Shown: in pieces, positions 1-15,973 of the stretch
Layout of the letters: each line of letters opens with the position of its first letter
Position numbering within the stretch: the first letter of the stretch is position 1
IMG/VR virus record: IMGVR_UViG_2529292919_000026
Length of the DNA: 16,261 bases
Reading direction: 5' to 3' (one strand)
Source of the DNA: a virus
Taxonomy: Duplodnaviria > Heunggongvirae > Uroviricota > Caudoviricetes
Translations under genes and position numbers: made by a program
The notes under the pieces: model-generated
Database searches by the model: none
What the model was told of the DNA's origin: nothing
The model's input: the letters and a program-made list of their open reading frames with translations, nothing else

Positions 1-306
1 ATGCTGCGTACTGGTATAGAGGGATGGACAGAAAATGACATTCTTCGCTACTGCCGTCTGTCTTCTGGTCGTAACTATGCAACAGAGTTAGAACGCCAGC
101 TTGGAATCACTCTGGAGCGTATCGACGAAAAGAATCCTGATGGTATCGGAACACACCTTCGCTACCGTTTCTCCTGCCGTGGTGATGTTCTGAAAGTGAT
201 CACTCATGTTAACCATCTTGCGAACATAAATGATCACAACGGACTTTCTCAGCAGGAAATTGCCGACATTCTGAAACTCTACCCGAACGCGTTTAACGCC
301 GCCTAA
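1..306 (+). CDS. hypothetical protein (101 aa)
   Basis: Uninterrupted ORF beginning at the first base of the window (ATG) and ending 12 nt before the next gene. No recognisable motif. The window also ends exactly on a stop codon, which suggests it was cut at gene boundaries and this CDS is complete. Confidence 0.45.
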   Translation: MLRTGIEGWTENDILRYCRLSSGRNYATELERQLGITLERIDEKNPDGIGTHLRYRFSCRGDVLKVITHVNHLANINDHNGLSQQEIADILKLYPNAFNAA

Positions 307-318
307 CGGAGACTGAAA

Positions 319-1152
319 ATGAACATCGAAAAAAGCAGATTAATTTCTGAGGCCGCCCCTCATCTGAACGCCTCTCTGGGCACAATTAACGGTAATGAAT
401 TTGCCGCAATTGTCCCGGTTATTCCTGGTCATATCGGTGGGCGTGAAACCAATATTGTTAGCGCAAAAGCGTTACACAAAGCGTTGGGCGTGGGAAAAGA
501 CTTCTCTACATGGATCACTGATCGCATCTCTGAATATGACTTCACCATTGGGCACGATTACTCAGTCCATAAAACAATTTCCCCAAATTTGGGGAAAAGC
601 CCGAATGGCGCGGCTTACAGCAAGATAAAGCACTCTGGCAGACCCGGCAAAGACTATCTGTTAAGTGTCGGAATGGCGAAAGAACTGGCAATGATCGAAC
701 GCAATGATCAGGGTCGCGCTATCCGCCGTTATTTCATCCAGTGCGAGGAAGAATTACAGCGTACCGTGCCTGAAATCGCCGCCCGCTATCGTCGCCAGCT
801 AAAAGCCCGTATTAGTGCCGCAAACAACTTTAAGCCAATGTGCGATGCGCTGAATATGGCCCGTGCCGAGATGGGGAAAATGACGCAGCAACACCACTAC
901 ACAAACGAGAGCAATATGATTTCTCGTATCGTTCTTGGTGGGCTAACTGCTAAGCAGTGGGCGCGGATAAATGGCTATTCTGGCGAACCTCGCGACCATA
1001 TGAACGCAGAACAGCTTGAGCACCTCTCATATCTCGAAAGCACCAATATCACGTTAATTGATATGGGCATGGAATATGAGCAGCGCAAAGGAGAACTCAC
1101 CCGCCTGTCGCAACGCTGGCTCGCCAAGCGTCTGGAGGCGCTCAATGTCTAA
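319..1152 (+). CDS. phage antirepressor, AntA-like N-terminal domain plus KilAC/ANT-like C-terminal domain
   Basis: 277-aa ORF with GGAGAC Shine-Dalgarno 6-8 nt upstream. C-terminal segment DYLLSVGMAKELAMIERNDQGRAIRRYFIQCEEEL matches the conserved AKELAM...RRYFI.CE signature I associate with phage antirepressor C-terminal domains. N-terminal part (IVPVIPGHIGGRETNIVSAKALHKALGV) resembles AntA-type domains. Family assignment is from memory. Confidence 0.7.
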   Translation: MNIEKSRLISEAAPHLNASLGTINGNEFAAIVPVIPGHIGGRETNIVSAKALHKALGVGKDFSTWITDRISEYDFTIGHDYSVHKTISPNLGKSPNGAAYSKIKHSGRPGKDYLLSVGMAKELAMIERNDQGRAIRRYFIQCEEELQRTVPEIAARYRRQLKARISAANNFKPMCDALNMARAEMGKMTQQHHYTNESNMISRIVLGGLTAKQWARINGYSGEPRDHMNAEQLEHLSYLESTNITLIDMGMEYEQRKGELTRLSQRWLAKRLEALNV

Positions 1153-1324
1153 GCCAACAGGAACACCACAACCACAAAAACGCTACAAAGATGCCCACGG
1201 AGCACTCGTTACTGTCGAAAGCGTGTCTCACAACCGAGTGACGTTTTATCGCGACGGGTATCAATCGCCATGCGTACAACCGCTGGCGCGTTTCATGAAG
1301 GAGTTCGCGGAGGTTAACCAATGA
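1145..1324 (+). CDS. small hypothetical protein (59 aa)
   Basis: ATG at 1145 overlaps the stop codon of the antirepressor (ATGTCTAA), and the stop overlaps the next gene's start (ATGA at 1321-1324), typical translational coupling. The track's longer 1058 start lies inside the upstream gene. Confidence 0.45.
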   Translation: MSKPTGTPQPQKRYKDAHGALVTVESVSHNRVTFYRDGYQSPCVQPLARFMKEFAEVNQ

Positions 1325-2388
1325 TACCCGTCCAGAAGAAGACATTTTCACTGGCTGGTATGTCGCCAAAATCCAGCAATATGACGGCAAAGTCAGGCAT
1401 TAATACAGCAGATACAAGCAAAGTTTATCATTTGCTGGTGGTCGGAACGGATGCCTTAACCATACCAGAAATCTCGGGCGATGATATTAGCATTGAGAAG
1501 GTCAGCGGCTGCGCCAGAAAATTTCTGGTCGTAGATGATGTCTTCCGCTCGCGTAGTGACTCCACAAAAACCTTCATCCGCGCGCGTGACGTTAACGAAA
1601 TGAGCGCGATGTACTGTGCATCTGGTGCTTCCAATAGCGAGTTTTCGGAGTCCATAAAAAAGAGCTTGCCGTTATGCGGCAACACGGTTTATGGTTATAA
1701 GGCACCTCATAAAACGGGTGCCGGGATTGGCGTCCTGGTAAATCGAATGGCGACATATGACGCGCCGAGCGTCTTTTTTTATGTCGTAGGTCTGACTCAC
1801 CCATTTTTTGGGCGTTGGTGTATAATCCAGCGCCTTTGTCAATCAATGGTGGCTCAGGCAGGGGCTTCTTCGGAAGCGCCGGTATCCATTCGAGCCGGTT
1901 ACGCCAACCCTGTCTGGGCTACCACCAGCGAAATTGGCGTTTCCGGTGGTAGCGTTACATGCTATCGAATGGAGGCTGCCACATGCTGGCTACTACCCCT
2001 ACCCAAAAACCGCAATTTATCTGGATTATCGCCGCAGTTCGCCGCGATTGCCCGACAATTACCGCCAGAATTCATCATATTGCTGCCGAGTCTGAACGCG
2101 ATGCTCGCCGTTCTCTGGTGCGCGATCACGTCTGCTTTTTTGCTGGTCGTATCCGCATGGAGGTGGCACATGATTAAAACCTACGATGTGCATATGGATC
2201 CCCTCGAACGCACAAGCCAGATCATCACACTGACAGAAGTGATTAACGACATTCTGGTGAGCAACTCTCCCTCACGAGACGAAAGACTGAAGGCGTTACT
2301 CGCGATATTGGATCTCGCCGTTCGTGACGTTCATTTCCTGCTGGAAGGTGGCGAAATGCCAGTAAAAACGGGGGCAACCAATGAATAA
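1321..2388 (+). CDS. hypothetical protein (355 aa)
   Basis: 355 codons without a stop in ~50% GC DNA is unlikely by chance. Start is coupled to the preceding gene by ATGA overlap. No recognisable domain. Contains a strong internal GGAGG-N5-ATG at 2160-2172 (see findings). Confidence 0.5.
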
Positions 2389-2575
2389 CTCAATTAATAC
2401 CCCTCGCCTTACGTCCGCACTTCAATTAATCGAGCAAGCAGCGGCTGTCCTGGTTGCTGTCAGTCTTTCGGCTGAAGAAATGGACGCTACTGATGTCGTG
2501 GATGCGATTAAAGCGTGCTCATCTTTGGTTAACGATGCCCGTGCAGAGCTGGTAATTCTTGGGGGTGAAAAATGA
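2381..2575 (+). CDS. small hypothetical protein (64 aa)
   Basis: ATG overlaps the stop of the upstream gene (ATGAATAA), and its stop overlaps the next start (ATGA at 2572-2575). Confidence 0.55.
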   Translation: MNNSINTPRLTSALQLIEQAAAVLVAVSLSAEEMDATDVVDAIKACSSLVNDARAELVILGGEK

Positions 2576-2835
2576 ATATCAACTTAATTTATCGTCATCC
2601 GTGTGAGCTGGAAATTGAATCATTGCTGAGCCGTGAAGAACCATATCCAGACACATTCACTCTTGCAGATCGCACGACTGAACGGCTTACCAGAGCGCGC
2701 ACAGGTCTGGTTCATGTGATGAATGAGATTCTTCCATCGGTGGGAGGGGAACAGGCGACAGTAATCACTAGCTGGCTACAAAAAGTTACCTCTCTGATAG
2801 ATATCAGTTTAATCGATGCGGAGAGTGCGAAATGA
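2572..2835 (+). CDS. small hypothetical protein (87 aa)
   Basis: Translationally coupled on both sides by ATGA overlaps (2572-2575 and 2832-2835). Confidence 0.55.
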   Translation: MNINLIYRHPCELEIESLLSREEPYPDTFTLADRTTERLTRARTGLVHVMNEILPSVGGEQATVITSWLQKVTSLIDISLIDAESAK

Positions 2836-3053
2836 CCAACATCCAGCTCATTGAAGCGCAATGTCGCATCGAACAGGTTCAGACTGTTTTAGGGTTCTGG
2901 CTTGAAGGGGCCAGCCCCAGCAACAGAGACAAGTTAATGATTGGCGCGGTTATGTCACTGCTCAATGGCGTACCAGAAGCTATTCAGGAAGCAGACGAAT
3001 TGTTGGGCAAATATGAGTTACAGAATCATTCAGGCGAGGCGAAACATGAATAA
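2832..3053 (+). CDS. small hypothetical protein (73 aa)
   Basis: Coupled to neighbours. Stop overlaps the next start in ATGAATAA at 3047-3053. Confidence 0.55.
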   Translation: MTNIQLIEAQCRIEQVQTVLGFWLEGASPSNRDKLMIGAVMSLLNGVPEAIQEADELLGKYELQNHSGEAKHE

Positions 3054-3648
3054 TTTCTTAACTTTCCAGGCAGAAGCAACGCCTGACGGCGTAAACATCA
3101 TGCACCGCAGCAACGATGGCATGACAGAACGCGTTGAGACCGTCTCATATATTGATGCCGTAAATCGTCTGGATGCCGGGGATTATGACGATAAACCAGA
3201 TGAAGGTATGTCAATACATCTCGCTATTGCCGATGGCGGCAACCAGGGATATTTCGATTACACATCACAGCATAACGTCATTATGTGGAGATGGTTGATC
3301 GCAACAGTATTCATGCTGGAAATGAGAGAGGAAAACGGCACTGTCAGCATCATTGATGATACTGGCAATCCTTCCGAAGTGGCTGTTTATTCCAACGGCA
3401 TCGTCGCCATGCCGCTGTATCCAGTAGCAGAGCGCCTCGCTATGGCAAACAACATTGAGGGCGCGATGATAGAACGTTTTGGCATCGAGTCTGGCACAGA
3501 ACGCTCCATCATTTTCTACAGAGCCATGATGGATGTGGAACAAGGAGCACTGACTCCATTTGGTCGTGAAACGCTTGCTGAACTTCACAACAGCTTTATA
3601 GCTGAACTGAATGAAAACGGCATGCCATCGGAACCAGTGACGCACTGA
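3047..3648 (+). CDS. hypothetical protein (200 aa)
   Basis: ATG at 3047 overlaps the upstream stop. The track ORF extends to 2941, but that start lies inside the upstream gene, so the coupled ATG at 3047 is preferred. Acidic protein with no recognisable motif. Confidence 0.55.
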
Positions 3649-3658
3649 GGATGGAACC

Positions 3659-3742
3659 ATGATTACTAAAAATTTCCGACTGAATGCGCTGGCAAATAAG
3701 TATGCGTCAGCACTGTATAACCACATTACCTCCACCAGCGGC
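3659..3742 (+). pseudogene. N-terminal fragment (28 codons) of a small gene split by IS insertion
   Basis: GAGGA Shine-Dalgarno 7 nt upstream of ATG 3659. Reading frame MITKNFRLNALANKYASALYNHITSTSG runs into the IS left end. After removing the IS and one copy of the duplication the frame continues exactly into 5301-5558. Confidence 0.7.
3734..3742. repeat. left copy of 9-bp target-site duplication ACCAGCGGC
   Basis: Identical to 5292-5300. The last C is shared with the first base of the IS terminal repeat, so the junction is ambiguous by 1 nt. Confidence 0.75.
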
Positions 3743-3760
3743 TGTCTCTTATACACAAAT
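3742..3760 (+). repeat. IS left terminal inverted repeat (outside-end-like)
   Basis: CTGTCTCTTATACACAAAT, 17/19 match to Tn5 OE. Confidence 0.8.
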
Positions 3761-3906
3761 CCCCACCCGGGGATTTGTGATGTCTGTCAGTCTGCTTTAG
3801 GGGGACTCTTTCCATCCGGTAGTTTCCTTCCTCCCCGGCAGCGATTTTTTGAACTTTTTCCTCACCCGTTGATCTTCTCTTATATTTCATTTTCTTCGGG
3901 TCTGTT

Positions 3907-5280
3907 ATGGTACTTTCTGATTGTTATTCATGGGCTAACGAGCAGTTTGGACATGCCCGTCTCGGTGATCCGCGTCGTACACGACGCCTTGTGTCACTGG
4001 CCTCTTCTCTCGCTCAGCATGCAGGTCTTTCTATTGTGAAATCATCCCAGTCCACTGCTCAGGTTGAAGGTGCGTACCGCCTGATACGTAACCCGTCTGT
4101 GTCCCCGCAAGCCATTGCCGAAGCCGGATTTACCGCCACTGTAAGGGCATGTGAGGCTCATCCGCTGCTCCTCGCGCTGGAAGACACCACCACCATTAAC
4201 TTCAGTCACAGTACGGCATCTGATGACCTGGGGAATACCACCACTAACCCGAAGACGCGCGGGCTGCTGGCTCACTCTGTCCTGATGTACGCCCCCGACA
4301 GCGCCCTGCCAGTCGGTCTTATCGAACAGCAGCGCTGGAGTCGTGCCACGGACACCTACGGTGTTAAGCACCAGCGAAAAGAACGTCCCTATGAAGAAAA
4401 AGAAAGTTACCGCTGGCAGCAGGCTTCGGAGCGCATGGCCGAACGGCTGGGGGAGATACAGAAACGGGTAATCACTGTCTGTGACCGGGAAGCGGATATC
4501 TGGCATTACCTGCATTATAAAGTCAGCCACGGGCAGCGCTTCGTGGTGCGTGCAGCACAGAATCGCCGGCTGGAAGAAGCACCCGGCAAGCTCTTCGAAC
4601 TGCCGGAAGTCCTGGCAACCGCGGGAAGCCACACGCTGAATGTGATGCAAAAAGGCGGGCGGGCAGCCCGCCAGGCCCGGATGTTCATCAGTTACAGCGA
4701 AGTCAGCATAAAAAATCCCGACAACAGCGGCCAGGCGCTCCCGCTCACGTATGTCTGTTGCCGGGAGCAGGCAGAGGACGGCGCCTGCTGGCATCTGCTG
4801 ACGTCAGAAAAAGTGGCGAGTGCCGCCGATGCGCGACGTATCGTCAGCCATTACGAGCGACGCTGGCTGATAGAGGAATACCACAAGGCGTGGAAAAGTG
4901 GTGGTACATGTGTGGAATCGCTGCGAATGCAGACCCGGGATAACCTCGAGCGCATGGTGGTTATCAAGGCGTTTATCGCGGTGCGGGTGCTGGGCCTGCG
5001 GCAGGGCGGTATCAGTGAAGAAACACAAAATGACAGCTGTGAGAAAATACTGACGCCGACAGAGTGGAAACTGCTGTGGGTTAAGCTGGAAGGAAAACCG
5101 CTTCCGTCACAGATGCCGACACTGAAATGGGCCTGTCTGAAACTGGCGAAACTGGGGCGATGGCATGACAGCAAACGCACCGGTCGCCCCGGTTGGGTAG
5201 TCATGTGGGATGGCTGGTTCAGACTTCAGGATATGGTTGAGGGTTACCTGGTGATGAAGTCTCTTGATCAGGAGATCTGA
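3907..5280 (+). CDS. tnp: IS4-family DDE transposase, Tn5 Tnp-like (457 aa)
   Basis: Clear collinear similarity to Tn5 transposase: GDPRRT.RLV, EGAYR.IRNP.VS, L(A/L)(I/L)EDTT, VCDREADI, RFVVR, RW.IEE(F/Y)HKAWK(T/S)G and DNLERMV...A(V/I)R.L.LR blocks, including the catalytic D, D, E positions. Stop codon lies inside the right terminal repeat. Confidence 0.85.
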   Translation: MVLSDCYSWANEQFGHARLGDPRRTRRLVSLASSLAQHAGLSIVKSSQSTAQVEGAYRLIRNPSVSPQAIAEAGFTATVRACEAHPLLLALEDTTTINFSHSTASDDLGNTTTNPKTRGLLAHSVLMYAPDSALPVGLIEQQRWSRATDTYGVKHQRKERPYEEKESYRWQQASERMAERLGEIQKRVITVCDREADIWHYLHYKVSHGQRFVVRAAQNRRLEEAPGKLFELPEVLATAGSHTLNVMQKGGRAARQARMFISYSEVSIKNPDNSGQALPLTYVCCREQAEDGACWHLLTSEKVASAADARRIVSHYERRWLIEEYHKAWKSGGTCVESLRMQTRDNLERMVVIKAFIAVRVLGLRQGGISEETQNDSCEKILTPTEWKLLWVKLEGKPLPSQMPTLKWACLKLAKLGRWHDSKRTGRPGWVVMWDGWFRLQDMVEGYLVMKSLDQEI

Positions 5281-5291
5281 TCAAGAGACAG
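5273..5291 (-). repeat. IS right terminal inverted repeat (inside-end-type)
   Basis: Reverse complement is CTGTCTCTTGATCAGATCT, 19/19 with Tn5 IE. Confidence 0.85.
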
Positions 5292-5558
5292 ACCAGCGGC
5301 GGGGACTATTTCATGATTGATGCGGACGGAGAGGCCGTACGTGTGGAAATCGTCAATGGAGTAAAAGGCGTTCGCAGCCTGATCGATAGTTACGCACTGG
5401 CAGCCATGAAAGTGTTCTACCCGCAGTGGGAAACCGTGGGGATCGAGCTTCTTGATCGTTGCGTCACTAAGGACAGATTGACTGACGTCGGGCGTGAGAT
5501 ATGGCAAAGCATGGTTAATGACATGGGCGCAACTGTAGCGGGAGGTTCTCATGCGTGA
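5292..5558 (+). pseudogene. C-terminal fragment of the IS-split gene (the 5313-5558 track ORF is its in-frame tail)
   Basis: Starts with the right copy of the duplication ACCAGCGGC (encoding T-S-G, the same three residues that end the N-terminal fragment). Frame continues G-D-Y-F-MIDADGEAV... to TGA 5556-5558. Reconstructed intact protein would be about 113 aa. Confidence 0.7.
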
Positions 5559-5922
5559 AAATGCAGAAATGGCGCTTAGCTCCGCAATCGGAGAGCAGGT
5601 GGCAAAGATTGCTGGTGCTGTGTGGATTCATAACCTTCATTCTACTGGTGAAGAGAAAATGGCAATTCAGACGCCAGAGGGACGCACTATTACTACATCT
5701 CTGAAGCCGTCAGATGTTTGTGATCTGATTTGCGCATTCATGTACCCAGCAATGAGGACTGTCCACGGCGATAAGTGGAAACTTGCGACAACCGCTGAAT
5801 TTGATATGTGGCTAAACAATGATGGCATGCTGACTGATTACGGAATAACCAAGTGGCAGATGCTGGTTAGCCATATCGCAAACGCTATAGACCACGTGGG
5901 GTACGGTGATGCGAAACATTGA
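5551..5922 (+). CDS. hypothetical protein (123 aa)
   Basis: GGAGG at 5541-5545, five nt before ATG 5551. Start overlaps the stop of the split gene (ATGCGTGA). Its 3' end overlaps the primase start. Confidence 0.55.
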   Translation: MRENAEMALSSAIGEQVAKIAGAVWIHNLHSTGEEKMAIQTPEGRTITTSLKPSDVCDLICAFMYPAMRTVHGDKWKLATTAEFDMWLNNDGMLTDYGITKWQMLVSHIANAIDHVGYGDAKH

Positions 5923-8665
5923 TCTTATCCGTCAGGTTATCAGTGCGTCTGAAAACAACTGGCCTCATGTGCTGGGCTGCCTGAACATAAATGTCCCTGA
6001 CTCTCCGCGCCGTCATGCTCCCTGCCCTGCATGTGGGGGCAAAGATCGATTCCGGTTCGATGACAACGGGCGCGGTAGCTTCATCTGTAATCAGTGCGGC
6101 GCTGGTGATGGGCTGGATTTAATTAAACGCGTAAATAACTGCGACACAACAGAGGCGGCGCTGCTTGCCGCTGATGTTCTGGGTATTGATTACCGGACAA
6201 CGGAAACACCAGAAGCCACCAGCCAGAAACGGGAACAACTGGAAACCGAGCGCCAGCAACGCGAACAGGAGCGCCTGAAAAGGGCGGAGAAGGACGAACA
6301 ACAAAGACGGGATACGTTTTCCCGTCAGTTTGATGACATGCGCAGAAAGGCTGTAAACGGCAAATCTGATTATCTGGTTGCGAAAGGGGTAGGTGATTTT
6401 ACATTCCCCGTGTTGCCCGATGGATCTCTGTTGCTGGCGCTGGTGGATAAATCCGGCGCAGTCACAGCAGCACAGACTATTACCTCACATGGTGAAAAAA
6501 GACTCCTGACAGGTTCAGCAAAGCGGGGGGCATATCACGCCATAAACGCACCAGAAACAACACAGAGCATCTTAATCGCAGAAGGGCTGGCAACGGCATT
6601 ATCTGCCCATTTAATTCGTCCAGAGGCGCTGACAGTGGCGGCGATTGATGCCGGGAACCTGTTATATGTCGCCCAGGTACTGCGGGATAAATTTCCTTCA
6701 GCACAAATCATCATTGCTGCGGATAACGACCACAGCGAAGGAAGACAAAACACGGGGAGAATAGCAGCAGAAAAAGCAGCTTTATCTGTTTCTGGATGGG
6801 TGGCATTACCCCCGACAGGTCACAAAGCAGACTGGAATGATTACCACCAAAAACACGGCATTAAATGCGCCACAGAAGCGTTCAATAAGTCAATGTACCA
6901 ACCACAGGGTAATGGCGTGAAACAGGAGCCACAGACCATTGAGGGAAGCGATTTTAAGGTTATGGATACCGACCCACTGAAACCAAGAATAGAAAGCCGC
7001 GAGGATGGTATTTATTGGGTATCTCCGAGAGCTGACAGCCAGAGTGGAGAAATCATCAATAACGAAAGCTGGTTATGTTCTCCGTTAAGCGTTATCGGTA
7101 CTGGCAGAGACGATAAAGACCAGTATCTCATTCTTCGCTGGCTGTCGTTTGGTTCTGAAACGCCGACAACCGCTGCCATTCCACTGGCTGATATTGGTGA
7201 ACGTGAAGGATGGCGCACACTTAAAGCTGGTGGGGTAAATGTCACGACCAAAAGCAGCCTCAGAGCAATACTGGCAGACTGGCTACAACGCAGTGGCTCT
7301 CGTGAATTGTGGCGTGTTGCTCATGCCACTGGCTGGCAATGCGGAGCGTACATCATGCCTGATGGGGAAATCATCGGAACACCTGAAAATCCTGTGCTGT
7401 TCAGCGGGAGAAGCTCAGCCGCAGCCGGATATACCGTCTCAGGGAGCGCGCAAAGCTGGCGTGATAACGTGGCGCGTCTGGCCTTTGGTAACTATTCAAT
7501 GATGACCGGGATCGGCGCAGCACTGGCAGCACCATTGATTGGGCTGGTGGGCGCTGACGGGTTCGGCATTCATTTCTATGAGCAGTCGAGCGCAGGTAAG
7601 ACCACCACGGCAAACGTGGCGAGCAGCTTATACGGCAACCCTGATTTACTGCGGCTGACGTGGTACGGAACCGCGCTGGGGCTGGCAAATGAGGCCGCCG
7701 CCCACAATGACGGACTAATGCCGCTTGATGAAGTTGGTCAGGGCGCTGATCCTGTCAGCGTTTCACAGTCTGCCTATGCGTTATTTAACGGTGTAGGGAA
7801 ACTGCAAGGCGCTAAAGATGGTGGAAACCGGGATCTAAAACGCTGGCGTACAGTGGCAATCAGCACCGGAGAAATGGATTTAGAAACATTTATCGCTACT
7901 TCCGGGCGAAAAACCAAAGCCGGGCAACTGGTGCGACTGCTGAATATTCCGTTGAGTAAAGCAGTACGCTTTCACGATTACCAGAACGGAAAACAGCACG
8001 CAGACGCACTGAAAGACGCTTACCAGCATCACCATGGCGCAGCCGGGCGTGAGTGGATTAAATGGCTGGCAGACCACCAGCAACAGGCTATTAAAACTGT
8101 TCGTGATTGCGAAAGCAGATGGAGAAGCCTGATCCCACCCGATTATGGTGAGCAGGTTCACCGTGTAGCCGCGCGATTTGCCATTCTGGAGGCCGCATTG
8201 TTGTTAGGCGAGGTTGTAACAGGCTGGGATGCTCAGACATGCCGTGATGCGATACAGCACAGCTATAACGCATGGTTGCGCGAGTTCGGCACAGGTAACA
8301 AAGAGCATCAGCAGATTATTGAACAAACGGAGGCATTTCTTAATGCCTATGGGCTTAGCCGTTTTGCACCATTTCCATACAGCCCGGCAGATTTGCCCAT
8401 CAAAGATTTAGCCGGATACCGTCAGCGTGGAGAACATGACGAAAGCCCAATGATTTTCTACACATTCCCGGCCACATTTGAAAAGGAGATCGCATGTGGT
8501 TTCAACGCAAAACAGTTTGCTGAAGTGTTGAAAAAAGCCGGGATGCTAACCCCACCAAACAGCGGTCGTGGATACCAAAGAAAATCACCACGTATTCAGG
8601 GACGACAAATAAACGTTTATGTACTCAATTACCAGCCAGGAGATTATAACTCATCTGAAGAATGA
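5909..8665 (+). CDS. primase, zinc-ribbon + Toprim + DUF927/P4-alpha-like NTP-binding domain (about 918 aa)
   Basis: N-terminal CPACGGKDRFRF...FICNQCG zinc ribbon; Toprim-like acidic motifs (ILIAEGLATA, IIIAADNDHSEG); P-loop-like EQSSAGKTT near residue 555. Immediately followed by an iteron array. ATG at 5909 is preferred over the GTG at 5906 reported by the track. Confidence 0.8.
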   Translation: MRNIDLIRQVISASENNWPHVLGCLNINVPDSPRRHAPCPACGGKDRFRFDDNGRGSFICNQCGAGDGLDLIKRVNNCDTTEAALLAADVLGIDYRTTETPEATSQKREQLETERQQREQERLKRAEKDEQQRRDTFSRQFDDMRRKAVNGKSDYLVAKGVGDFTFPVLPDGSLLLALVDKSGAVTAAQTITSHGEKRLLTGSAKRGAYHAINAPETTQSILIAEGLATALSAHLIRPEALTVAAIDAGNLLYVAQVLRDKFPSAQIIIAADNDHSEGRQNTGRIAAEKAALSVSGWVALPPTGHKADWNDYHQKHGIKCATEAFNKSMYQPQGNGVKQEPQTIEGSDFKVMDTDPLKPRIESREDGIYWVSPRADSQSGEIINNESWLCSPLSVIGTGRDDKDQYLILRWLSFGSETPTTAAIPLADIGEREGWRTLKAGGVNVTTKSSLRAILADWLQRSGSRELWRVAHATGWQCGAYIMPDGEIIGTPENPVLFSGRSSAAAGYTVSGSAQSWRDNVARLAFGNYSMMTGIGAALAAPLIGLVGADGFGIHFYEQSSAGKTTTANVASSLYGNPDLLRLTWYGTALGLANEAAAHNDGLMPLDEVGQGADPVSVSQSAYALFNGVGKLQGAKDGGNRDLKRWRTVAISTGEMDLETFIATSGRKTKAGQLVRLLNIPLSKAVRFHDYQNGKQHADALKDAYQHHHGAAGREWIKWLADHQQQAIKTVRDCESRWRSLIPPDYGEQVHRVAARFAILEAALLLGEVVTGWDAQTCRDAIQHSYNAWLREFGTGNKEHQQIIEQTEAFLNAYGLSRFAPFPYSPADLPIKDLAGYRQRGEHDESPMIFYTFPATFEKEIACGFNAKQFAEVLKKAGMLTPPNSGRGYQRKSPRIQGRQINVYVLNYQPGDYNSSEE

Positions 8666-8684
8666 GCTTCTTCATGTGCGTAGA

Positions 8685-8730
8685 AAAGGTGTTGGTTCAG
8701 TTGGTTCAGTTGGTTCAATTTGTAAAGAGT
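8685..8730 (+). repeat. 46-bp segment perfectly inverted-repeated at 15899-15944
   Basis: AAAAGGTGTTGGTTCAGTTGGTTCAGTTGGTTCAATTTGTAAAGAG is the exact reverse complement of 15899-15944. Confidence 0.9.
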
Positions 8731-8802
8731 ATTGTTTTATAAGGATTTTATTCTTTTTATTGAACCAACACTGAACCAACAACACGGTATTTTGAACCAA
8801 CA
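8692..8802. promoter_or_regulatory. iteron array, candidate replication origin (copy A)
   Basis: Three tandem GTTGGTTCA 9-mers (8692-8718), an AT-rich ~43-bp spacer, then three spaced inverted copies TGAACCAAC (8762-8770, 8773-8781, 8794-8802). Sits directly 3' of the primase gene. Confidence 0.65.
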
Positions 8803-8862
8803 CAATGTGACTGAATTGATGCGCACAACACCTGGCTGGCATCAGAGAGTGTTTTACGAGAC

Positions 8863-8883
8863 TTTCGTAAAATCCTGTGTACA
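8863..8883. promoter_or_regulatory. palindromic operator-like site TTTTACGA-N5-TCGTAAAA
   Basis: 8-bp perfect inverted arms seen directly in sequence. Confidence 0.4.
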
Positions 8884-8905
8884 AGGGCGTGACGTTTTTG
8901 AAAGT

Positions 8906-8922
8906 GAGCACTACGAAATTTT
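8906..8922. promoter_or_regulatory. palindromic operator-like site CTACGAAA-T-TTTCGTAG
   Basis: 17-bp near-perfect palindrome sharing the TTTCGTA half-site with the site 25 bp upstream. Confidence 0.4.
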
Positions 8923-9122
8923 CGTAGTTCAAAAAACAGCCTCTGAGAAGTTGTTATGCCTGTTCAGCAAACCATCCGCATAGCTGATCGCGAATCAAAT
9001 TACCAATGGAGCCAGAATCAAGGGCAGAACTGAAAAGCGCCTGCCGTGAAGAGTAATGCGATACCATAAATATAGTTTTTAGAGTCCATAAAAAACCTGT
9101 CAAAACCTGACACACAGAACGA

Positions 9123-9154
9123 TGCCACCAGCTACTGAGCGGTGGCATTTTTTT
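9123..9154 (+). terminator. rho-independent terminator (orphan, no upstream + strand CDS)
   Basis: Stem TGCCACC/GGTGGCA with 11-nt loop, followed by seven T residues (9148-9154). Confidence 0.55.
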
Positions 9155-9249
9155 GTGCTATTTGTTTCATATTTTGCAATTACGATGATGAATATTGCGA
9201 TTTGTGAAACTATAATAACTGTTGTTTTATACAGTTCTAAGGGGGCGTT

Positions 9250-9411
9250 ATGGCTATTTCAGTAAATCCGGTATTGATAAGTGAGAAGCAAATGGAAGCG
9301 ATAAAGAAAATTCAGGAAGAGCAGCGTAAAAAATCAGGAATTGGAGTAGCGCCAACTCTGCATGAAATTGCACGAGGGTTAATAGATAAGGCGCTGGCAG
9401 GCTGTATGTGA
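9250..9411 (+). CDS. small hypothetical protein (53 aa), below the track's length cut-off
   Basis: AAGGGGG Shine-Dalgarno 6 nt upstream of ATG 9250; TATAAT hexamer at 9211-9216. Sequence MAISVNPVLISEKQMEAIKKIQEEQRKKSGIGVAPTLHEIARGLIDKALAGCM, possibly a small DNA-binding protein. Confidence 0.45.
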   Translation: MAISVNPVLISEKQMEAIKKIQEEQRKKSGIGVAPTLHEIARGLIDKALAGCM

Positions 9412-9427
9412 AAATGGATGGCATCGC

Positions 9428-9889
9428 ATGGAACTAAAATTTATTGATAACCCTGTGCGATTACAGGCCTTTCTTAACGAGCCAGGCAATACCGAAAATA
9501 TTGTTGAGCCGGGGCACACGTACTACATCAAGCCTGATGCGGTATATCTCGGCATCTACGAAGGATTAGTGCTGGCTGGCGTTCATGAAGTGCGTAACTT
9601 CTGGCATAGCGTTGTTGAATGCCATGCGGTGTACGACCCCGGATTCCGTGGTGAATATGCACTGCAAGGGCATCGATTATTCTGCAAATGGCTTCTCGAA
9701 AACTCACCATTCCTTAACAGCATCACCATGGTTCCTGACACCACCAAATACGGACGGGCAATTATCCGTTTGCTTGGCGCTACCCGTGTTGGTCACCTTG
9801 ATGATGCTTATATCAGATGTGGTAAACCCGTCGGCGTAACGCTTTATCAGTTAACTCGGCAACAATATAAGGAATTCAGCGAATGTTAA
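9428..9889 (+). CDS. protein at the gene-14 position of a P22-like ejection-protein cluster (153 aa)
   Basis: Assigned by position and size only: it directly precedes three coupled ejection-protein-like genes, and its stop overlaps the next start. Confidence 0.35.
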   Translation: MELKFIDNPVRLQAFLNEPGNTENIVEPGHTYYIKPDAVYLGIYEGLVLAGVHEVRNFWHSVVECHAVYDPGFRGEYALQGHRLFCKWLLENSPFLNSITMVPDTTKYGRAIIRLLGATRVGHLDDAYIRCGKPVGVTLYQLTRQQYKEFSEC

Positions 9890-10560
9890 TTACCCATATA
9901 GCTCATAAACATCTCAATCGTGCCGTATACGAAAAAGGCGGTGATGGTGGTGCCTCTAAAGCTCAGGCGAAGGCCCAGCAGCAGGCAATTGATTTGCAGC
10001 GCGAGCAGTGGAATACGGTGATGAATAATCTCAAGCCGTATGCAGAAGTCGGATTGCCTGCTTTACAACAACTGCAAGGACTGATGACTCTGGAAGGGCA
10101 GAATAAAGCCGCGAATGATTTCTTTGGTTCTGGTTTATATAAAACACAGGCAGATCAGGCCCGTTATCAGAACCTTGTCTCAGCAGAAGCTACCGGGGGG
10201 CTTGGCTCAACAGCTACCAGTAACCAGTTATCTTCCATTGCGCCCATGCTTTATAACAATTGGCTCAGTGGGCAAATGCAAAATTATGGAAACCTGCTAA
10301 ATGTCGGGATGAATGCGGCATCAGGGCAGGCAACGGCAGGGCAAAACTACGCCAATAATACCGGACAACTCTTGCAGGGGCTTGGCGCTATTCGTGCAGG
10401 TCAGGCGCAGCAGCCATCCAGTCTTGCGCGTGGTATTGGTGGGGCAGCATCAGGCGCTTTAGCGGGTGCGCAACTTGGTTCCGTTGTTCCTGGAATAGGA
10501 ACTGCGGCCGGCGCTATTGGTGGTGGGCTTATTGGTCTTGTTGGGGGGCTTGGATTCTAA
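9883..10560 (+). CDS. P22 gp7-like DNA ejection (internal virion) protein (225 aa)
   Basis: Size close to P22 gp7 (about 229 aa from memory); EKGGDGG segment near the N terminus; Gln/Ala/Gly-rich low-complexity body; glycine-zipper hydrophobic C terminus GGLIGLVGGLGF. First of three coupled genes in P22 order. Confidence 0.55.
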   Translation: MLITHIAHKHLNRAVYEKGGDGGASKAQAKAQQQAIDLQREQWNTVMNNLKPYAEVGLPALQQLQGLMTLEGQNKAANDFFGSGLYKTQADQARYQNLVSAEATGGLGSTATSNQLSSIAPMLYNNWLSGQMQNYGNLLNVGMNAASGQATAGQNYANNTGQLLQGLGAIRAGQAQQPSSLARGIGGAASGALAGAQLGSVVPGIGTAAGAIGGGLIGLVGGLGF

Positions 10561-11981
10561 TGGCGACATGGCAACTTGGCGGGCTGCCTAGCATGGCACC
10601 GCAAAATGATAATGCTCCTCGTTCTTCCGTTCCTCAGCCTGTGCAGTATCAGCAGCAGCCAAACGTAGGTTTAATGGCGCTACAGGGGCTAAGAGGCGTT
10701 GCTGAGATTAATCAGCAGGCACGTCAACAACAGCGTAAATCAGAGTTTCAGAAAGCATATGCCGGGGCTTTTGAGTCTGGAGACAGAAACAAAATGCGCA
10801 GTCTTATTTCTGAGTATCCAGAAGAATTTGAAAGCGTTCAGAAAGGGATGGGCTTTATTGATGACGACCAGAGAAATTCTATTGGTCATCTTGCGACTAG
10901 TGCTCAAATCGCATCTTCGCTCGGAACTGGGGCATTTGGAAAATTCATAGCAGATAACGAAGATGAAATGCGTCGCTTGGGAATTTCTCCTGAGTCTGTT
11001 GCCGAAATGCATGTTAATGATCCACAGGGATTCCAGCGGCTTGCTGGTAGTATGGCACTGTTTTCTCTCGGTCATGAGAAGTATTTCGATATCAAAGATC
11101 AAATGGAAGGTCGGGATATTGAGCGAGGCAGGCTGGCAGAGACAATCCGCAGCAATCAGGCTGGCGAAGCACTTCAGGCGAGAGGGCAGGATATTAGCCG
11201 AGCAAATGCGTTAACGTCAGCATATGCACCAACAGCAGCAATGCAGAATTACAATCAGTACGCTCAAATGTTAAAGGCGGATCCAGAGGGGGCGGCGGCA
11301 TTTGCGGCAGCGGCTGGAATTAATACAAACGCCAAAAAATTAATGAGTGTTAGAGAAAACGATGATGGCACTGTCACAAAATACTACACAGACGGAAGTG
11401 AAGAGCAGGGAAAACTAAACCAGCCAATATCTGGAGATGGGTTTCGTCCAATAGCTTTGCCAACAGCCCAAAAGATCATGGAAAAGTCGCCAGAAGGGGC
11501 TAAAAAAGCTGCTGGATTTGCATACAGGGTTAGGGATGCTCTTGATTCAATAGATACACTGAAAGACCAGCTTAGCCCACAGCGAGTGGCGATCATTAAT
11601 AATGCTTTGGGTAATGGGACGCTGGCTAACTTAACGCTCAGCCCAACAGAGCAGCAATACGTTGTTAATGCTAATGACGCAATAATGGCAATACTCCGTC
11701 AGGAAACAGGGGCAGCTATCGTACCTGCTGAAATGTCAAAATATTATCAAATGTATTTCCCTCAGCCTGGCGACTCCACAAAAACCATTGATACCAAGCG
11801 CCGGAAGATGGAAAACCAGTTCAATTCGCTGAAAGCTGCTTCTGGTCGAGCTTATGATGCTTTGCGGGTTATTTCAGCAGTTGACAGAGGAACGTCTTCT
11901 TCGTCGCAGACATTGCCGCAATCTGAGCAGGTATCACAGCCAGCAGCCAGCAGTAACTTTTCTTCACTATGGGGTGATTAA
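10560..11981 (+). CDS. P22 gp20-like DNA ejection protein (473 aa)
   Basis: Size close to P22 gp20 (about 471 aa from memory). Start overlaps the upstream stop (TAATGG) and the stop overlaps the next start. Confidence 0.55.
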   Translation: MATWQLGGLPSMAPQNDNAPRSSVPQPVQYQQQPNVGLMALQGLRGVAEINQQARQQQRKSEFQKAYAGAFESGDRNKMRSLISEYPEEFESVQKGMGFIDDDQRNSIGHLATSAQIASSLGTGAFGKFIADNEDEMRRLGISPESVAEMHVNDPQGFQRLAGSMALFSLGHEKYFDIKDQMEGRDIERGRLAETIRSNQAGEALQARGQDISRANALTSAYAPTAAMQNYNQYAQMLKADPEGAAAFAAAAGINTNAKKLMSVRENDDGTVTKYYTDGSEEQGKLNQPISGDGFRPIALPTAQKIMEKSPEGAKKAAGFAYRVRDALDSIDTLKDQLSPQRVAIINNALGNGTLANLTLSPTEQQYVVNANDAIMAILRQETGAAIVPAEMSKYYQMYFPQPGDSTKTIDTKRRKMENQFNSLKAASGRAYDALRVISAVDRGTSSSSQTLPQSEQVSQPAASSNFSSLWGD

Positions 11982-14086
11982 TGGCTAAAGCATGGAAAGA
12001 TGTTATCGCCTCTCCACAGTATCAGGCGTTAGCACCAGAACAAAAAGCGCAGGCTCAGGAGCAATACTTCAATGAAGTCGTTGCCCCGCAAGCCGGAGAA
12101 AGTGTAGAGCAGGCTAAGCAGGCTTTTTATGCTGCCTATCCACTACCATCAACGAATGAAATAGACCGATCCCAATCAGCAACTCAAAATATTCAACATA
12201 CATCATCTGATAATTCTCTTGCGTCAGGGTATGCAAAGTTAGCTACTCAGCAAAGAGAGGGGCTTGAGCGTTCAGCAGAACAGGGAGCCAGTCTTGGGGC
12301 TGCGATGCGCGATGCTATAACAGGCGAAAGCCGAATGACTTCAGAGATGGAGAGACTGCAAAATGTCGCCTCTGCCCCAGAATTGAACTCACTAAGCATG
12401 GATGCCCTAAAGGCTGGATGGTCCCAACTTTTCGGCTCTGACGCGTCTCAGGAAAAGATTCTTCAGGGAATGGGGGCGACATTAAGGCAGGATGAGAAGG
12501 GGAATACTATCGTTTCTCTGCCATCAGGTGATTATGCCCTGAACAAGCCGGGTTTATCACCGCAAGACCTGACTTCGTTTCTTGCTAATGCGTTGGCGTT
12601 TACACCAGCGGGCAGGGCTGGAACGGTGCTTGGTGCCATAGGAAAATCAGCAGCTACAGATTTAGCACTACAGGGAGCCACCAGCCTTGCTGGTGGAGAA
12701 GATATTGATCCGTTACAAACGGTAATTTCTGCTGGCATTGGTGGTATTGGTAAGGGGCTGGAAAATACAGCGAGTGCGGTTTCGAGGGCTGTTCGTGGTG
12801 ATATGTCGCCTGAAGCAAAGGCTGCTGTCGACTTTGCATCGGAAAGAAATCTGCCGTTAATGACCAGTGACATGCTGAAAGATAAAACCTTTATGCAGAG
12901 TCAGGCTCAGACATTAGGCGAAAGAGTTCCTTTTTTTGGAACCGGTAAGAATCGGCTGAATCAACAACAAGCACGAGAAAATTTAGTCAGAACATTTAGC
13001 GATGGTCTGGGTGGCATTTCTGATAAACAGCTTTATGAATCTGCGACTAAAGGGCAACAAAAATTCATTGAGGCAGCAGGAAAGCGATATAACCGCATAA
13101 TTGACGCTATGGGGGATACCCCTGTCGATCTCTCAAACACGGTAAAAGCTATCGACAATCAGATTGCCGTGTTAAGCCGCCCGGGCAAATCTCAGGATAG
13201 AGCCGCGGTAAAAGTCTTGCAGCAATTTAAAGACGATATCACCAGCGGACCAAATGACCTGCGCCTGGCGAGGGAAAACAGAACCGATCTTCGAAAGCGA
13301 TTTATTGCGTCATCTGACACTGTTGATAAAGATACGCTCCAGAAAGCCAGCGATATTATCTACAAGGCATATACGGCGGATATGAAAAAAGCCGTAGCCA
13401 AAAATCTTGGAGCAGACGAAGCCATTAATATGGCAAGGGTTGATCGCTCATGGTCTAAATTCAATGACATGATGGGAAGAACGCGCGTTCAAAAGGCAAT
13501 AGCCAGCGGCAAGGCCACGCCTGAGGATGTAACAAAACTCGTTTTTAGCCAAAGCCCATCAGAACGTTCTCAGCTTTACAGGCTTCTGGATGACAATGGT
13601 AGGCAAAACGCACGAGCAGCCATAGTTCAGAATGCTGTAGATAAGGCGACTGATCCGTCTGGAAATATCAGTGTTGAGAAGTTTATTAATGCGTTACACC
13701 GGAACAGGAAGCAATCAGCAACTTTCTTTAAAGGCGTACATGGGAAGGAACTGGACGGCGTTATTAAATACCTCAACGATACAAGACACGCGGCAAAAGC
13801 GAACGTTCAAAACTTAAATGGTCAGCAGCTTTATGGATTGTTAGTTGGTGGTGGCATCATAAACGCAGCAGTATTAGCGGGGATGCTAAAAACGGCTGCG
13901 TTTGTTGTTCCTGCTGCTGGTGCCGTAGGCGGAGCAGCGAAGGCATACGAAACCCCTGTTATACGAAATGCCTTGTTACGTCTGGCAAATACGCCAAAAG
14001 GTAGCACAGCATATGACAGAGCGATCAGTACGGTCACACAATCGCTCACCAGAGTCGCACAGGCATCACAAAAAGAAGCTCAATAA
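11981..14086 (+). CDS. P22 gp16-like DNA ejection protein (701 aa)
   Basis: Third coupled gene; large Ala/Gln-rich protein with hydrophobic Gly/Ala-rich segment near the C terminus (GGGIINAAVLAGMLKTAAFVVPAAGAVGGAA). Longer than P22 gp16 (about 609 aa from memory). Confidence 0.5.
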   Translation: MAKAWKDVIASPQYQALAPEQKAQAQEQYFNEVVAPQAGESVEQAKQAFYAAYPLPSTNEIDRSQSATQNIQHTSSDNSLASGYAKLATQQREGLERSAEQGASLGAAMRDAITGESRMTSEMERLQNVASAPELNSLSMDALKAGWSQLFGSDASQEKILQGMGATLRQDEKGNTIVSLPSGDYALNKPGLSPQDLTSFLANALAFTPAGRAGTVLGAIGKSAATDLALQGATSLAGGEDIDPLQTVISAGIGGIGKGLENTASAVSRAVRGDMSPEAKAAVDFASERNLPLMTSDMLKDKTFMQSQAQTLGERVPFFGTGKNRLNQQQARENLVRTFSDGLGGISDKQLYESATKGQQKFIEAAGKRYNRIIDAMGDTPVDLSNTVKAIDNQIAVLSRPGKSQDRAAVKVLQQFKDDITSGPNDLRLARENRTDLRKRFIASSDTVDKDTLQKASDIIYKAYTADMKKAVAKNLGADEAINMARVDRSWSKFNDMMGRTRVQKAIASGKATPEDVTKLVFSQSPSERSQLYRLLDDNGRQNARAAIVQNAVDKATDPSGNISVEKFINALHRNRKQSATFFKGVHGKELDGVIKYLNDTRHAAKANVQNLNGQQLYGLLVGGGIINAAVLAGMLKTAAFVVPAAGAVGGAAKAYETPVIRNALLRLANTPKGSTAYDRAISTVTQSLTRVAQASQKEAQ

Positions 14087-14090
14087 CTGG

Positions 14091-14113
14091 TTAGCCATGG
14101 ATGGCTAATTTTT
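14091..14113 (+). terminator. intrinsic terminator between convergent genes
   Basis: Perfect inverted repeat TTAGCCAT-GG-ATGGCTAA followed by TTTTT. The stop codon of the minus-strand membrane-protein gene lies inside the stem. Confidence 0.55.
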
Positions 14114-14524
14114 GTTCTTTGCTCTCATCCATAGGTAAAGAAGGGAAAGAACAAGACAAAAAACAGAGAATAGATAACCTACCTCATATGGTGCGCCAAA
14201 AAAATTAGCCATTGATACGGGCAAAAAAGCTGAAGCGATCAAAATTGAAAGGCAAAAAATAAGCCCAGTAATATAGTTTATTAAATTCTTAAATGAGAAA
14301 CGTTTTGCTTGATTTACGGTCTTAACGAACGATCGCTTAACGACGGATAAAAGCAAATAGATGGCGACAGTTGCTAATGCCCCTTTCCACCAGTCTGGAT
14401 ATAGTTTTGCGACAATCAGACCAAGGAAAACCATGATGACAGCCTGAGCATTCACACCAACCCTCCCTTTAGCTTTGTTTAGAATGGCAATCATCATATA
14501 TCCAAGACATGGCATTTGGTACAT
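14105..14524 (-). CDS. small multi-pass inner-membrane protein at the sieA position (superinfection-exclusion-like)
   Basis: Several hydrophobic helices (VIMVFLGLIVAKL, ALATVAIYLLLSVV, ITGLIFCLSILIASAFL, LFSVFCLVLSLLYLW). Convergent with and immediately after the gp16-like gene, as sieA is in P22-like phages. Start uncertain: a strong AAAGGGAGGG sits 5 nt before an in-frame GTG at 14455. Confidence 0.5.
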   Translation of the reverse strand: MYQMPCLGYMMIAILNKAKGRVGVNAQAVIMVFLGLIVAKLYPDWWKGALATVAIYLLLSVVKRSFVKTVNQAKRFSFKNLINYITGLIFCLSILIASAFLPVSMANFFGAPYEVGYLFSVFCLVLSLLYLWMRAKNKN

Positions 14525-14564
14525 AGCTTGGGTCGGGATTTCAAATCCGATCCCCGTTGATGGG

Positions 14565-14960: not shown

Positions 14961-14978
14961 AGCATACACATTGGATAT

Positions 14979-15179
14979 TCATTTTGTGACCAATGCGATA
15001 AGTAGCGGGATAAGAATTGATAAAATCAACAGGACGATGATCCACTTTTGATTCTCGTCCATCTTATCTGCTAGGCGACGCTCCATTCCGTGCATATCAC
15101 CGCGAATGGCAATCATCTCATTGCGAACATCCGAGAAGTGGTTGGCTTGATGTTCAATGTGTGGCGTTCTGCCTTTCAT
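14979..15179 (-). CDS. small protein with C-terminal transmembrane helix (66 aa)
   Basis: GGTGAGGA Shine-Dalgarno 7 nt upstream of ATG on the minus strand. C-terminal WIIVLLILSILIPLLIALV hydrophobic segment. Confidence 0.5.
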   Translation of the reverse strand: MKGRTPHIEHQANHFSDVRNEMIAIRGDMHGMERRLADKMDENQKWIIVLLILSILIPLLIALVTK

Positions 15180-15944: not shown

Positions 15945-15973
15945 TGCTTATCTATATAATCTGAGAGGCAGAA

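Follow-up and report, generated by a model that had tools for sequence, protein, structure and literature searches.

An ISEc13 insertion at a preferred GC-rich target in a small gene upstream of a primase gene in an Escherichia coli island

The window (the whole stretch of 16,261 nucleotides analysed here, IMG/VR virus record IMGVR_UViG_2529292919_000026) contains a single insertion sequence that splits a small gene. On sequence identity, this element is an intact copy of ISEc13, a catalogued E. coli IS of the IS4 family and IS50 subgroup, and is thus already known rather than new. The preferred reading, with a probability of roughly 0.93, is that ISEc13 recently inserted into a small island gene, by cut-and-paste transposition of the Tn5 type, at a preferred CCYCB-N8/9-VGRGG site. 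The DDE transposition mechanism is the one expected by homology, and it would have produced both the 8-bp duplication and the split gene, with the insertion point set by the strong preference of ISEc13 for this motif. The finding itself is of small importance, representing one more insertion of a common named E. coli IS into an accessory island gene. The target rule, however, explains the exact position of the IS and, if undocumented, may interest engineers of Tn5-type transposases.

Identity and boundaries of the element

The name ISEc13 is taken from the RefSeq/NCBI annotation of identical copies (Table 1). The copies in EPEC strain E2348/69 (E. coli O127:H6) are 100% identical to the window element, and copies there and in many RefSeq genomes share its 1550-bp length, its ends and its 457-aa transposase; the insertion site alone differs. 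WP_000244358.1 is the annotated transposase in ISEc13 copies with 99.9-100% DNA identity, and protein cluster P0001, with 1389 member sequences, is identical to the window transposase. Under the ISfinder convention, elements with more than ~95% protein or more than ~90% DNA identity are the same IS, and the window element is nearly identical to the named ISEc13 in both DNA and transposase. At least 80% of ISEc13 was found in 874 of 5426 complete E. coli genomes, at up to 32 places per genome. A scan of species-representative genomes for the ISEc13 left end gave no match.

An earlier, sequence-only reading described an intact IS50-like element at 3734-5300. The element is indeed intact and IS50-like, but the IS proper is now confined to 3742-5291. 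A C precedes TGTCTC in all seven of the copies first compared, whatever their flanks, and CTGTCTC is the start of 20 of 20 full ISEc13 copies. Because this C is constant across copies with differing flanks, C3742 is assigned as base 1 of the element.

Table 1. Coordinates of the insertion, its target and the neighboring genes in the window
Feature	Position	Strand	Details
Interrupted gene, 5' part	3659..3741	+	113-codon gene, phrog_37628, function unknown; fusion ORF of 126 aa (3659-4039) runs into IS
Left target arm	3729..3733		CCTCC, C-rich half of dyad-symmetric motif
Target duplication, left copy	3734..3741		8 bp, ACCAGCGG
ISEc13, intact	3742..5291	+	1550 bp; RefSeq copies labelled 'IS4-like element ISEc13 family transposase' are 100% identical across 1549 bp
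Left terminal sequence	3742..3760	+	CTGTCTCTTATACACAAAT; 17/19 to Tn5 outside end (versus authentic IS50)
Perfect hairpin, 11-bp stem	3754..3779	+	Overlaps inner part of left end; -18.6 kcal/mol, z = -4.9
Segment of ~62 nt specific to ISEc13	3780..3841	+	Splits hairpin from T-run (leader alignment); own fold not significant
Conserved leader block, putative transposase promoter	3845..3877	+	T-run; TTGAAC 3849-3854 (-35-like); GATCTT 3871-3876
Transposase gene	3907..5280	+	457 aa; DDE residues D93/D193/E323, YREK signature
Perfect hairpin, 13-bp stem	5259..5289	+	Covers right-end positions 3-15; -21.6 kcal/mol, z = -4.8
Right terminal sequence	5273..5291	-	Reverse complement CTGTCTCTTGATCAGATCT; 19/19 to Tn5 inside end; two GATC Dam sites
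Target duplication, right copy	5292..5299		8 bp, ACCAGCGG
Right target arm	5300..5304		CGGGG, G-rich half of target motif
Interrupted gene, 3' part	5300..5558	+	In-frame ATG at 5313; 81-aa remnant ORF
Next downstream gene	5551..5922	+	123 aa, no family match; 8-nt overlap with interrupted gene
Primase gene	5906..8665	+	Zn-ribbon + Toprim + DUF927; RefSeq homologue start equivalent to window 5909

The IS50 subgroup has been described as comprising elements of 1350-1550 bp with target duplications of 8-9 bp, a terminal consensus of CW------Y---CA-A--W- (5'-CT ends) and a DDE transposase that is encoded without a frameshift and carries the full Y-(2)-R-(3)-E-(6)-K signature (PMC2266710). ISEc13, with 1550 bp and a duplication of 8 bp here, lies within these ranges, its ends, CTGTCTCTTATACACAAATC on the left and CTGTCTCTTGATCAGATCTC on the right, agree with the consensus at every specified position, and in its single 457-aa ORF Y316, R319, E323 and K330 align with Tn5 Y319, R322, E326 and K333. 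Among proteins of solved structure, Tn5 Tnp matches the transposase best (E = 6e-84). The two agree at 184 of 436 aligned positions (42%), a figure consistent with the earlier guess of a diverged protein below 50% identity. It scores 514 bits against the Tn5-type transposase profile NF033590 (cutoff 160) and exceeds the cutoffs for Tnp_DNA_bind (PF14706, 70 bits, cutoff 24) and DDE_Tnp_1 (PF01609, 30.9 bits, cutoff 23); the Tn5 dimerisation domain (PF02281) falls slightly under its cutoff, at 24.1 bits against 26.7. The Tn5 residues D97/D188/E326, Y319/R322/K333, W298 and R26/R27/R30/R62 are all kept, as are R210, K244, R342 and N348.

The ends were compared with authentic IS50 from plasmid pMAK2, and the close matches to the Tn5 outside end (17/19) and inside end (19/19) that had been noted from the sequence are real. 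The Tn5 outside-end and mosaic-end strings are also present in the text of two published papers. The sequence-only reading had, however, treated the pairing of such ends with a diverged transposase as remarkable, and relatives at 77%, 71%, 57% and 52% identity turn out to have essentially the same ends. Conservation of the end-binding and catalytic residues throughout the clade would explain why the ISEc13 transposase recognises ends so close to those of Tn5. The left end contains TTATACACA, a 9-mer with an established role as a DnaA box in the outside end of Tn5. By analogy, the 9-mer may serve as a DnaA box at the ISEc13 left end, and regulation of ISEc13 by Dam and DnaA may be expected.

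The target site and the empty site

The 9-mer ACCAGCGGC occurs exactly twice in the window (at 3734 and 5292), and to this extent the 9-bp duplication originally described is accurate. The true duplication is 8 bp, the ninth base being the C that begins the IS. Among distinct ISEc13 targets with a duplication (n = 14), its length is 8 bp in 11 and 9 bp in three, and in 28 of the 28 half-sites the second and fourth bases beyond the duplication are C. Three further copies have no duplication; judged by eye, their six half-sites fit as well, one with a one-base offset. The motif CCYCB-N8/9-VGRGG fits every ISEc13 site in this sample of 14 distinct sites and three recombinant copies from a handful of genomes, and the site is often a terminator stem. 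In the 14,703-bp pre-insertion sequence the motif is present exactly once, at the insertion point, with a chance expectation of ~0.5 per 16 kb.

Recognition of a hairpin or cruciform was considered as the basis of targeting and rejected. The fold of the window site is weak, at -6.7 kcal/mol (z = -1.0), and its arms are just partly complementary; recognition of two sequence half-sites is the simpler reading. It is possible, though doubtful at this stage, that ISEc13 and its clade combine Tn5-type ends with almost exclusive insertion at CCYCB-N8/9-VGRGG, often in the stems of Rho-independent terminators. Searches of the open-access literature for this target rule found no description of it, and searches on terminator targeting and on the named relatives yielded nothing relevant; ISEc13 itself is named there in eight papers, once in each, and by title and abstract these are genome surveys or typing tools and not studies of the element. 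If the rule is true, it would account for the build-up of these elements at harmless positions between convergent genes. If it is also undocumented, ISEc13 would represent a natural relative of the enzyme used in Tn5 tagmentation, one that is strongly selective for its target sites and has nearly the same end sequences.

Joining 3659-3742 to 5301-5558 produces an uninterrupted 113-codon ORF, which RefSeq annotates as WP_000628964.1 in the empty-site genomes; removal of the IS thus restores an in-frame gene, as had been noted. The empty site, which the sequence-only reading had proposed to look for in related genomes, is present in three complete genomes with 100% identity across 1000 bp, and 252 genomes match 80% or more of this 1-kb query. 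The lack of any uninterrupted allele, which would have spoken against the earlier proposal, can consequently be set aside, and its claim of recent transposition is supported. When the IS is removed, the window is collinear with E. coli strain 755, with no gaps and with identities of 100% on the left and 99.67% on the right, the IS being the only structural difference across the whole window. The island is ~17.5 kb long, integrase-bearing and prophage- or satellite-like, and is located between yicC and dinD. No match to the empty site was found in the phage collection, and the island is therefore not a deposited phage.

Expression effects and competing explanations

As had been proposed, the insertion lies within the operon leading to the primase: the interrupted gene is two upstream of the primase gene, and the orientation of the IS is that of the tightly packed operon. 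Inserted in this direction, the IS probably lowers the expression of both the next gene and the primase gene by polarity. The route would be translational uncoupling, possibly with termination at the left-end hairpin. Two relatives (the Vibrio and Serratia elements) have canonical terminator-like sites, placed as read-in terminators, at the position of this hairpin, and the right-end 13-bp stem is preserved in the Vibrio relative via a compensatory change. Termination at the left-end hairpin of ISEc13 is uncertain because no T-run adjoins it. The leader segment 3788-3856 was rejected as a terminator hairpin, its fold being no better than that of shuffled sequences (z = 0.25), and a scan of 3400-6000 for canonical plus-strand terminators found none. 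The putative transposase promoter is proposed from the conserved leader block, in which the spacer between TTGAAC and GATCTT is 16-17 nt and GATCTT contains a Dam site. In the leader alignment, the TTGAAC block and a downstream TGATCT (with GATC) are conserved in the 77%, 71%, 57% and 52% relatives. A crude sigma-70 consensus scan of both strands of 3400-6000 detected no promoter, neither an outward one nor the putative transposase one, and an outward promoter is unsupported for this reason.

These features bear on whether the insertion was functionally selected, either as read-out from an IS promoter through the right end, driving the remnant ORF, the next gene and the primase, or as host-beneficial silencing of the replication module of the island. 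The IS does share the orientation of the operon, the stretch from the transposase gene to the primase has no canonical plus-strand terminator, and the in-frame ATG at 5313 and the GGAGG preceding the ATG at 5551 could sustain translation. Selection is nevertheless unlikely, given that the allele is rare (none of 5426 complete genomes, versus 252 genomes that match at least 80% of the empty-site query), that no outward promoter was found and that target preference fully explains the site. The rarity of the allele also raises the question of whether an assembler misplaced a repeated IS into the island: the IS was found at this site in none of the 5426 complete E. coli genomes searched, and a scan of species-representative genomes for the IS-target junction gave no match. 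An artefact of this kind is given a slight probability, since it would have to coincide with a clean 8-bp duplication at a site that fits the target motif of the element, and an independent short-read contig from run SRR094164 starts inside the IS, with 29 nt of its right end, and has the same right junction, at 100% over 3451 bp. Looked up as exact proteins, the 126-aa fusion ORF had no match and the 81-aa remnant ORF did have one. The interrupted allele may serve as a strain marker.

The ends invite two further explanations of the element. Their likeness to the outside and inside ends of Tn5, and their match to the engineered mosaic end at 17 of 19 positions, are what a laboratory Tn5 derivative or vector remnant might show, whether a mutagenesis scar or contamination. 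However, ISEc13 is far from the near-identity to Tn5 that the sequence-only reading had reserved as a sign of such a construct, with 42% protein and ~46% whole-element DNA identity to IS50. It has no resistance marker, its duplication is 8 bp, and it is identical to the natural multicopy ISEc13 of wild isolates; this identity and the low transposase and DNA identity to Tn5 rule out a laboratory derivative, the probability of which is negligible. Tn5-like ends alone should not be read by annotators as the sign of a laboratory construct. The earlier and accurate impression that a diverged transposase is paired with conserved ends would fit an uncatalogued IS species with unexpectedly Tn5-like ends, but the probability of such a new species is very slight: the 100% identity to elements already called ISEc13 rules it out, and named (ISPlu9, ISPpr3) and unnamed relatives represent a continuum from ISEc13 to IS50 with common ends.

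Comparison with related elements

The relatives of ISEc13 include ISPlu9 from Photorhabdus, ISPpr3 from Photobacterium and unnamed elements from Serratia, Salmonella and Vibrio, with transposases 51-77% identical to that of ISEc13. ISPpr3 is represented by a protein match alone, and DNA was read for ISPlu9, the Serratia and Vibrio elements and the 77% Enterobacterales element. In the elements with DNA read, the left ends match at 16-19 of 19 positions, the right ends start with CTGTCTCTTGATCA, the TTGAAC...GATCT leader block is held in common, and insertions lie between C-rich and G-rich arms or within terminator hairpins. The relatives are shorter than ISEc13 (1488-1505 bp where measured). 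Unlike ISEc13, the Vibrio and Serratia elements have an intact hairpin and T-run terminator inside the left end, and the apparent duplications of the Vibrio element are 9-11 bp.

ISEc13 and IS50R/Tn5 have the same domain layout (N-terminal DNA-binding, DDE/YREK catalytic and C-terminal dimerisation domains), with catalytic and end-contacting residues conserved in both. They also share the left-end DnaA-box 9-mer, both right-end Dam sites and a transposase stop codon within the right end. In contrast, the leaders do not align and differ in length (165 nt in ISEc13, 92 nt in IS50), and the start codon for Met56 of the Tn5 inhibitor (Inh) has no counterpart at the matching ISEc13 position: in the alignment, Gln52 and Val53 stand opposite Tn5 residues 56 and 57, and the Val53 codon, GTT, is a non-start codon. 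The target duplication is 8 bp and sometimes 9 bp in ISEc13, compared with 9 bp in Tn5, and the strong dyad-symmetric GC-rich target motif of ISEc13 differs from the weak Tn5 consensus. Whereas Tn5 is a composite transposon, with two IS copies around resistance genes, ISEc13 is a lone IS here; the duplication directly flanks the single copy, and an empty-site genome is collinear with the window once the IS is taken out.

Symmetric target consensus sequences are known elsewhere in the IS4 family, GGG-N5-CCC for IS231A and NGCTNAGCN for IS10, and for both a dimeric DDE transposase is known to recognise dyad-symmetric targets. The insertion specificity of IS231 is cited in PMC2266710. ISEc13 has dyad-symmetric recognition in common with IS231A and IS10, but these belong to other subgroups, with other ends and other motifs, and, unlike theirs, the conserved target bases of ISEc13 lie outside the duplicated 8 bp.

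Identity and boundaries of the element

The element is an intact, recently inserted copy of ISEc13, a known and common insertion sequence of the IS50 subgroup of the IS4 family, and is ordinary save for its target rule. A megablast search of 5426 complete E. coli genomes found perfectly matching copies (100% over 1549 bp) that carry the annotation 'IS4-like element ISEc13 family transposase'. In 874 of these genomes the match covers 80% or more of the element, and 2992 contain some part of it, with up to 32 ISEc13 places per genome; EPEC E2348/69 has 30 on its chromosome and further ones on plasmid pMAR2. The element's G+C content is 55.5%, while the remainder of the window has 48.0%.

The transposase is identical to the protein that represents a cluster of 1389 sequences, and scores 514 bits against NCBIfam NF033590 (cutoff 160). 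The Pfam N-terminal DNA-binding and DDE domains are present, with the Tn5 dimerisation domain marginally under threshold. Tn5 transposase is the best solved-structure match (E = 6e-84; residues 6-453 of 457), and 184 of 436 aligned residues (42%) are identical, which bears out the sequence-only estimate of less than 50%; whole-element DNA is ~46% identical to IS50, and the leader gives no alignment at all. The Tn5 catalytic residues D97, D188 and E326, the YREK residues and W298 are conserved, as are all of the end-contacting residues R26, R27, R30, R62, R210, K244, R342 and N348, and by homology transposition would be of the Tn5 cut-and-paste type.

Features of the inserted element and its downstream junction
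Feature	Position	Strand	Details
Left terminal sequence	3742-3760	+	CTGTCTCTTATACACAAAT; read from sequence
Left hairpin	3754-3779		perfect 11-bp stem; -18.6 kcal/mol, z = -4.9
ISEc13 insert, absent from relatives	3780-3841		~62 nt, between left hairpin and T-run/TTGAAC block
Conserved TTGAAC, 16-17 nt, GATCTT	3849-3877		Dam site in -10-like hexamer
Single ORF between both ends	3907-5280	+	457 aa; ORF reading
Right hairpin	5259-5289		perfect 13-bp stem; -21.6 kcal/mol, z = -4.8
Right terminal sequence	5273-5291		reverse complement of CTGTCTCTTGATCAGATCT; read from sequence
In-frame remnant ORF	5313-5558		81 aa

The ends had been described as near the Tn5 outside (17/19) and inside (19/19) ends, and the same figures are obtained against the authentic IS50 of plasmid pMAK2 (1534 bp; outside end CTGACTCTTATACACAAGT, inside end CTGTCTCTTGATCAGATCT), with the left end matching the outside end and the right end the inside end. 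The Tn5 outside-end and mosaic-end strings are found in two published papers too. The perfect 9-bp duplication that had been claimed stands only in part: the 9-mer ACCAGCGGC does occur exactly twice in the window, but in the left copy its ninth base lies within the IS. An initial comparison of seven copies, each with its own flanking DNA, found C before TGTCTC every time, and CTGTCTC starts all 20 full copies examined; because this C is conserved across copies, C3742 is base 1 of the element. The IS spans 3742-5291 (1550 bp), the target duplication is 8 bp, ACCAGCGG, and the ninth matching base is a chance identity with the next target base. Duplications are 8 bp at 11 and 9 bp at 3 of 14 distinct ISEc13 targets that have one, and lengths of 8-9 bp are given for the IS50 subgroup in a review of the IS4 family (PMC2266710).

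The interrupted gene, its island and the primase

Joining the flanks yields a 113-codon ORF whose PHROG hit is family 37628, which has no assigned function; a Pfam search gave no family. The sequence-only reading that removal of the IS restores this gene in frame is confirmed by the empty site of other genomes, where the intact gene is annotated in RefSeq as WP_000628964.1. The uninterrupted allele is present at 100% identity over the joined 1 kb in three complete genomes, and the joined site is at least 80% matched in 252; none of the complete genomes searched has the IS at this site. Compared with E. coli strain 755, the whole window differs in structure only by the IS: the two are identical at 1-3742 (100%) and nearly so at 5292-16261 (99.67%), without gaps. 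A contig of SRR094164 provides an independent sighting of the interrupted allele: its first 29 nt belong to the IS right end and are joined to the same target, and its identity is 100% over 3451 bp.

The integrase-bearing island, ~17.5 kb, lies between yicC and dinD. Its genes include an integrase, an AlpA-type HTH regulator, AntA, Ash, several small genes and a primase with Zn-ribbon, Toprim and DUF927 domains, followed by P22-like gp14 (DUF2824), gp7, gp20 and gp16-like ejection-protein genes and then a PerC regulator gene. The AlpA-type HTH, AntA, Ash and primase genes are a satellite-like module combined with the P22-like ejection-protein genes, and the island stretch examined (the window, the O111:H8 island L001, and L057) showed neither capsid nor tail genes. 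An inverted repeat of ~88 bp (86% identity; 8684-8770 and 15858-15944) flanks the ejection-protein module. This region is mosaic among strains, in that the BLAST alignment to the O111:H8 island stops at window position 10720, past which strain 755 continues to match, as it does throughout.

The IS has the same orientation as the operon, and the split gene now continues into it as a 126-aa fusion ORF. The next gene (5551), which precedes the primase gene, overlaps the remnant ORF and has its own GGAGG ahead of the start codon. A consensus scan of 3400-6000 detected no promoter and no + strand terminator. It is plausible from the sequence that incoming transcription would be blocked, and hence that the insertion would be polar on the primase, as had been proposed; transcriptional read-out from the IS is possible.

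Target sites of ISEc13

Targets were reconstructed from 14 distinct ISEc13 insertions, giving 28 half-sites with positions numbered outward from the edge of the duplication. Positions 2 and 4 are C in 28/28, position 3 is C or T in 28/28 and position 5 is C in 24/28. The consensus, CCYCB-N8/9-VGRGG, is strongly dyad-symmetric, with inverted arms outside the duplication. The window site is CCTCC-ACCAGCGG-CGGGG (3729-3741 and 5292-5304), and a search of the 14,703-bp sequence reconstructed as it stood before insertion returns this motif a single time, at the insertion point, against ~0.5 chance matches in shuffled versions of the window. In three copies without a duplication (L002, L005 and L021), each flank taken separately still fits a half-site of the motif; all six were matched by eye, and one is shifted by a single base. 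This pattern suggests recombination between IS copies, accompanied by deletions or inversions, in E2348/69 and in other strains, and the three copies are probably inter-copy recombinants.

Many ISEc13 sites lie between convergent genes, and terminator stems are frequent targets; in the mog/satP terminator the element lies in opposite orientations in different strains (L018 and L025). The Vibrio element occupies classic terminators, such as AAAAAGCCCAGCG-TT-CGCTGGGCTTTTTTT. Such sites could be recognized as hairpins or as two sequence half-sites read by a transposase dimer, and the latter is favoured because the window site itself folds weakly. Relatives at 52-77% identity likewise occupy either canonical terminators or sites bounded by a C-rich and a G-rich arm, and the apparent duplications of the Vibrio element are 9 to 11 bp, centred on the hairpin loop. 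A published description of the target rule was not found in the open-access literature searched; prior documentation, for example in ISfinder or in the per-element target figure of the IS4 review, is possible.

Relatives, termini and leader

Transposase homologues (1332 proteins at E <1e-20) form a continuum, including relatives at 71-77% identity in Enterobacterales, Salmonella and Serratia, ISPlu9 at 57%, ISPpr3 at 53% and Vibrio relatives at ~51%. Copies with flanks were fetched for the 77%, Vibrio, Serratia and ISPlu9 elements. The left end CTGTCTCTTATACACAAAT is shared by the element at 77% identity and by the Vibrio element (52%), the latter being identical to ISEc13 over its first 23 nt; the Serratia and ISPlu9 left ends are CTGTCTCTTATACACATTT and CTGTCTTTCCTACACAAAT, and all four right ends start CTGTCTCTTGATCA. 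Since four relatives with diverged transposases have nearly the same ends, end conservation is a property of the clade, in agreement with the conserved DNA-contact residues. The surprise implied in pairing Tn5-like ends with a diverged transposase falls away, as relatives at 52-77% identity have essentially the same ends.

Both termini sit inside perfect hairpins, which possibly shield the element from read-in transcription or modulate end use. The right-end stem is preserved in a Vibrio relative by a compensatory change (CAG/CTG to CAC/GTG). In the leader alignment, the clade layout is the end, a hairpin and T-run, TTGAAC, ~17 nt, TGATCT with a Dam site, and ATG. In the Vibrio and Serratia relatives the hairpin directly adjoins the T-run, and together they score as a canonical intrinsic terminator; this was not flagged in the 77% relative. 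The TTGAAC/GATCTT block of ISEc13 was undetected by a consensus promoter scan, and resembles the Dam-sensitive transposase promoter of IS50.
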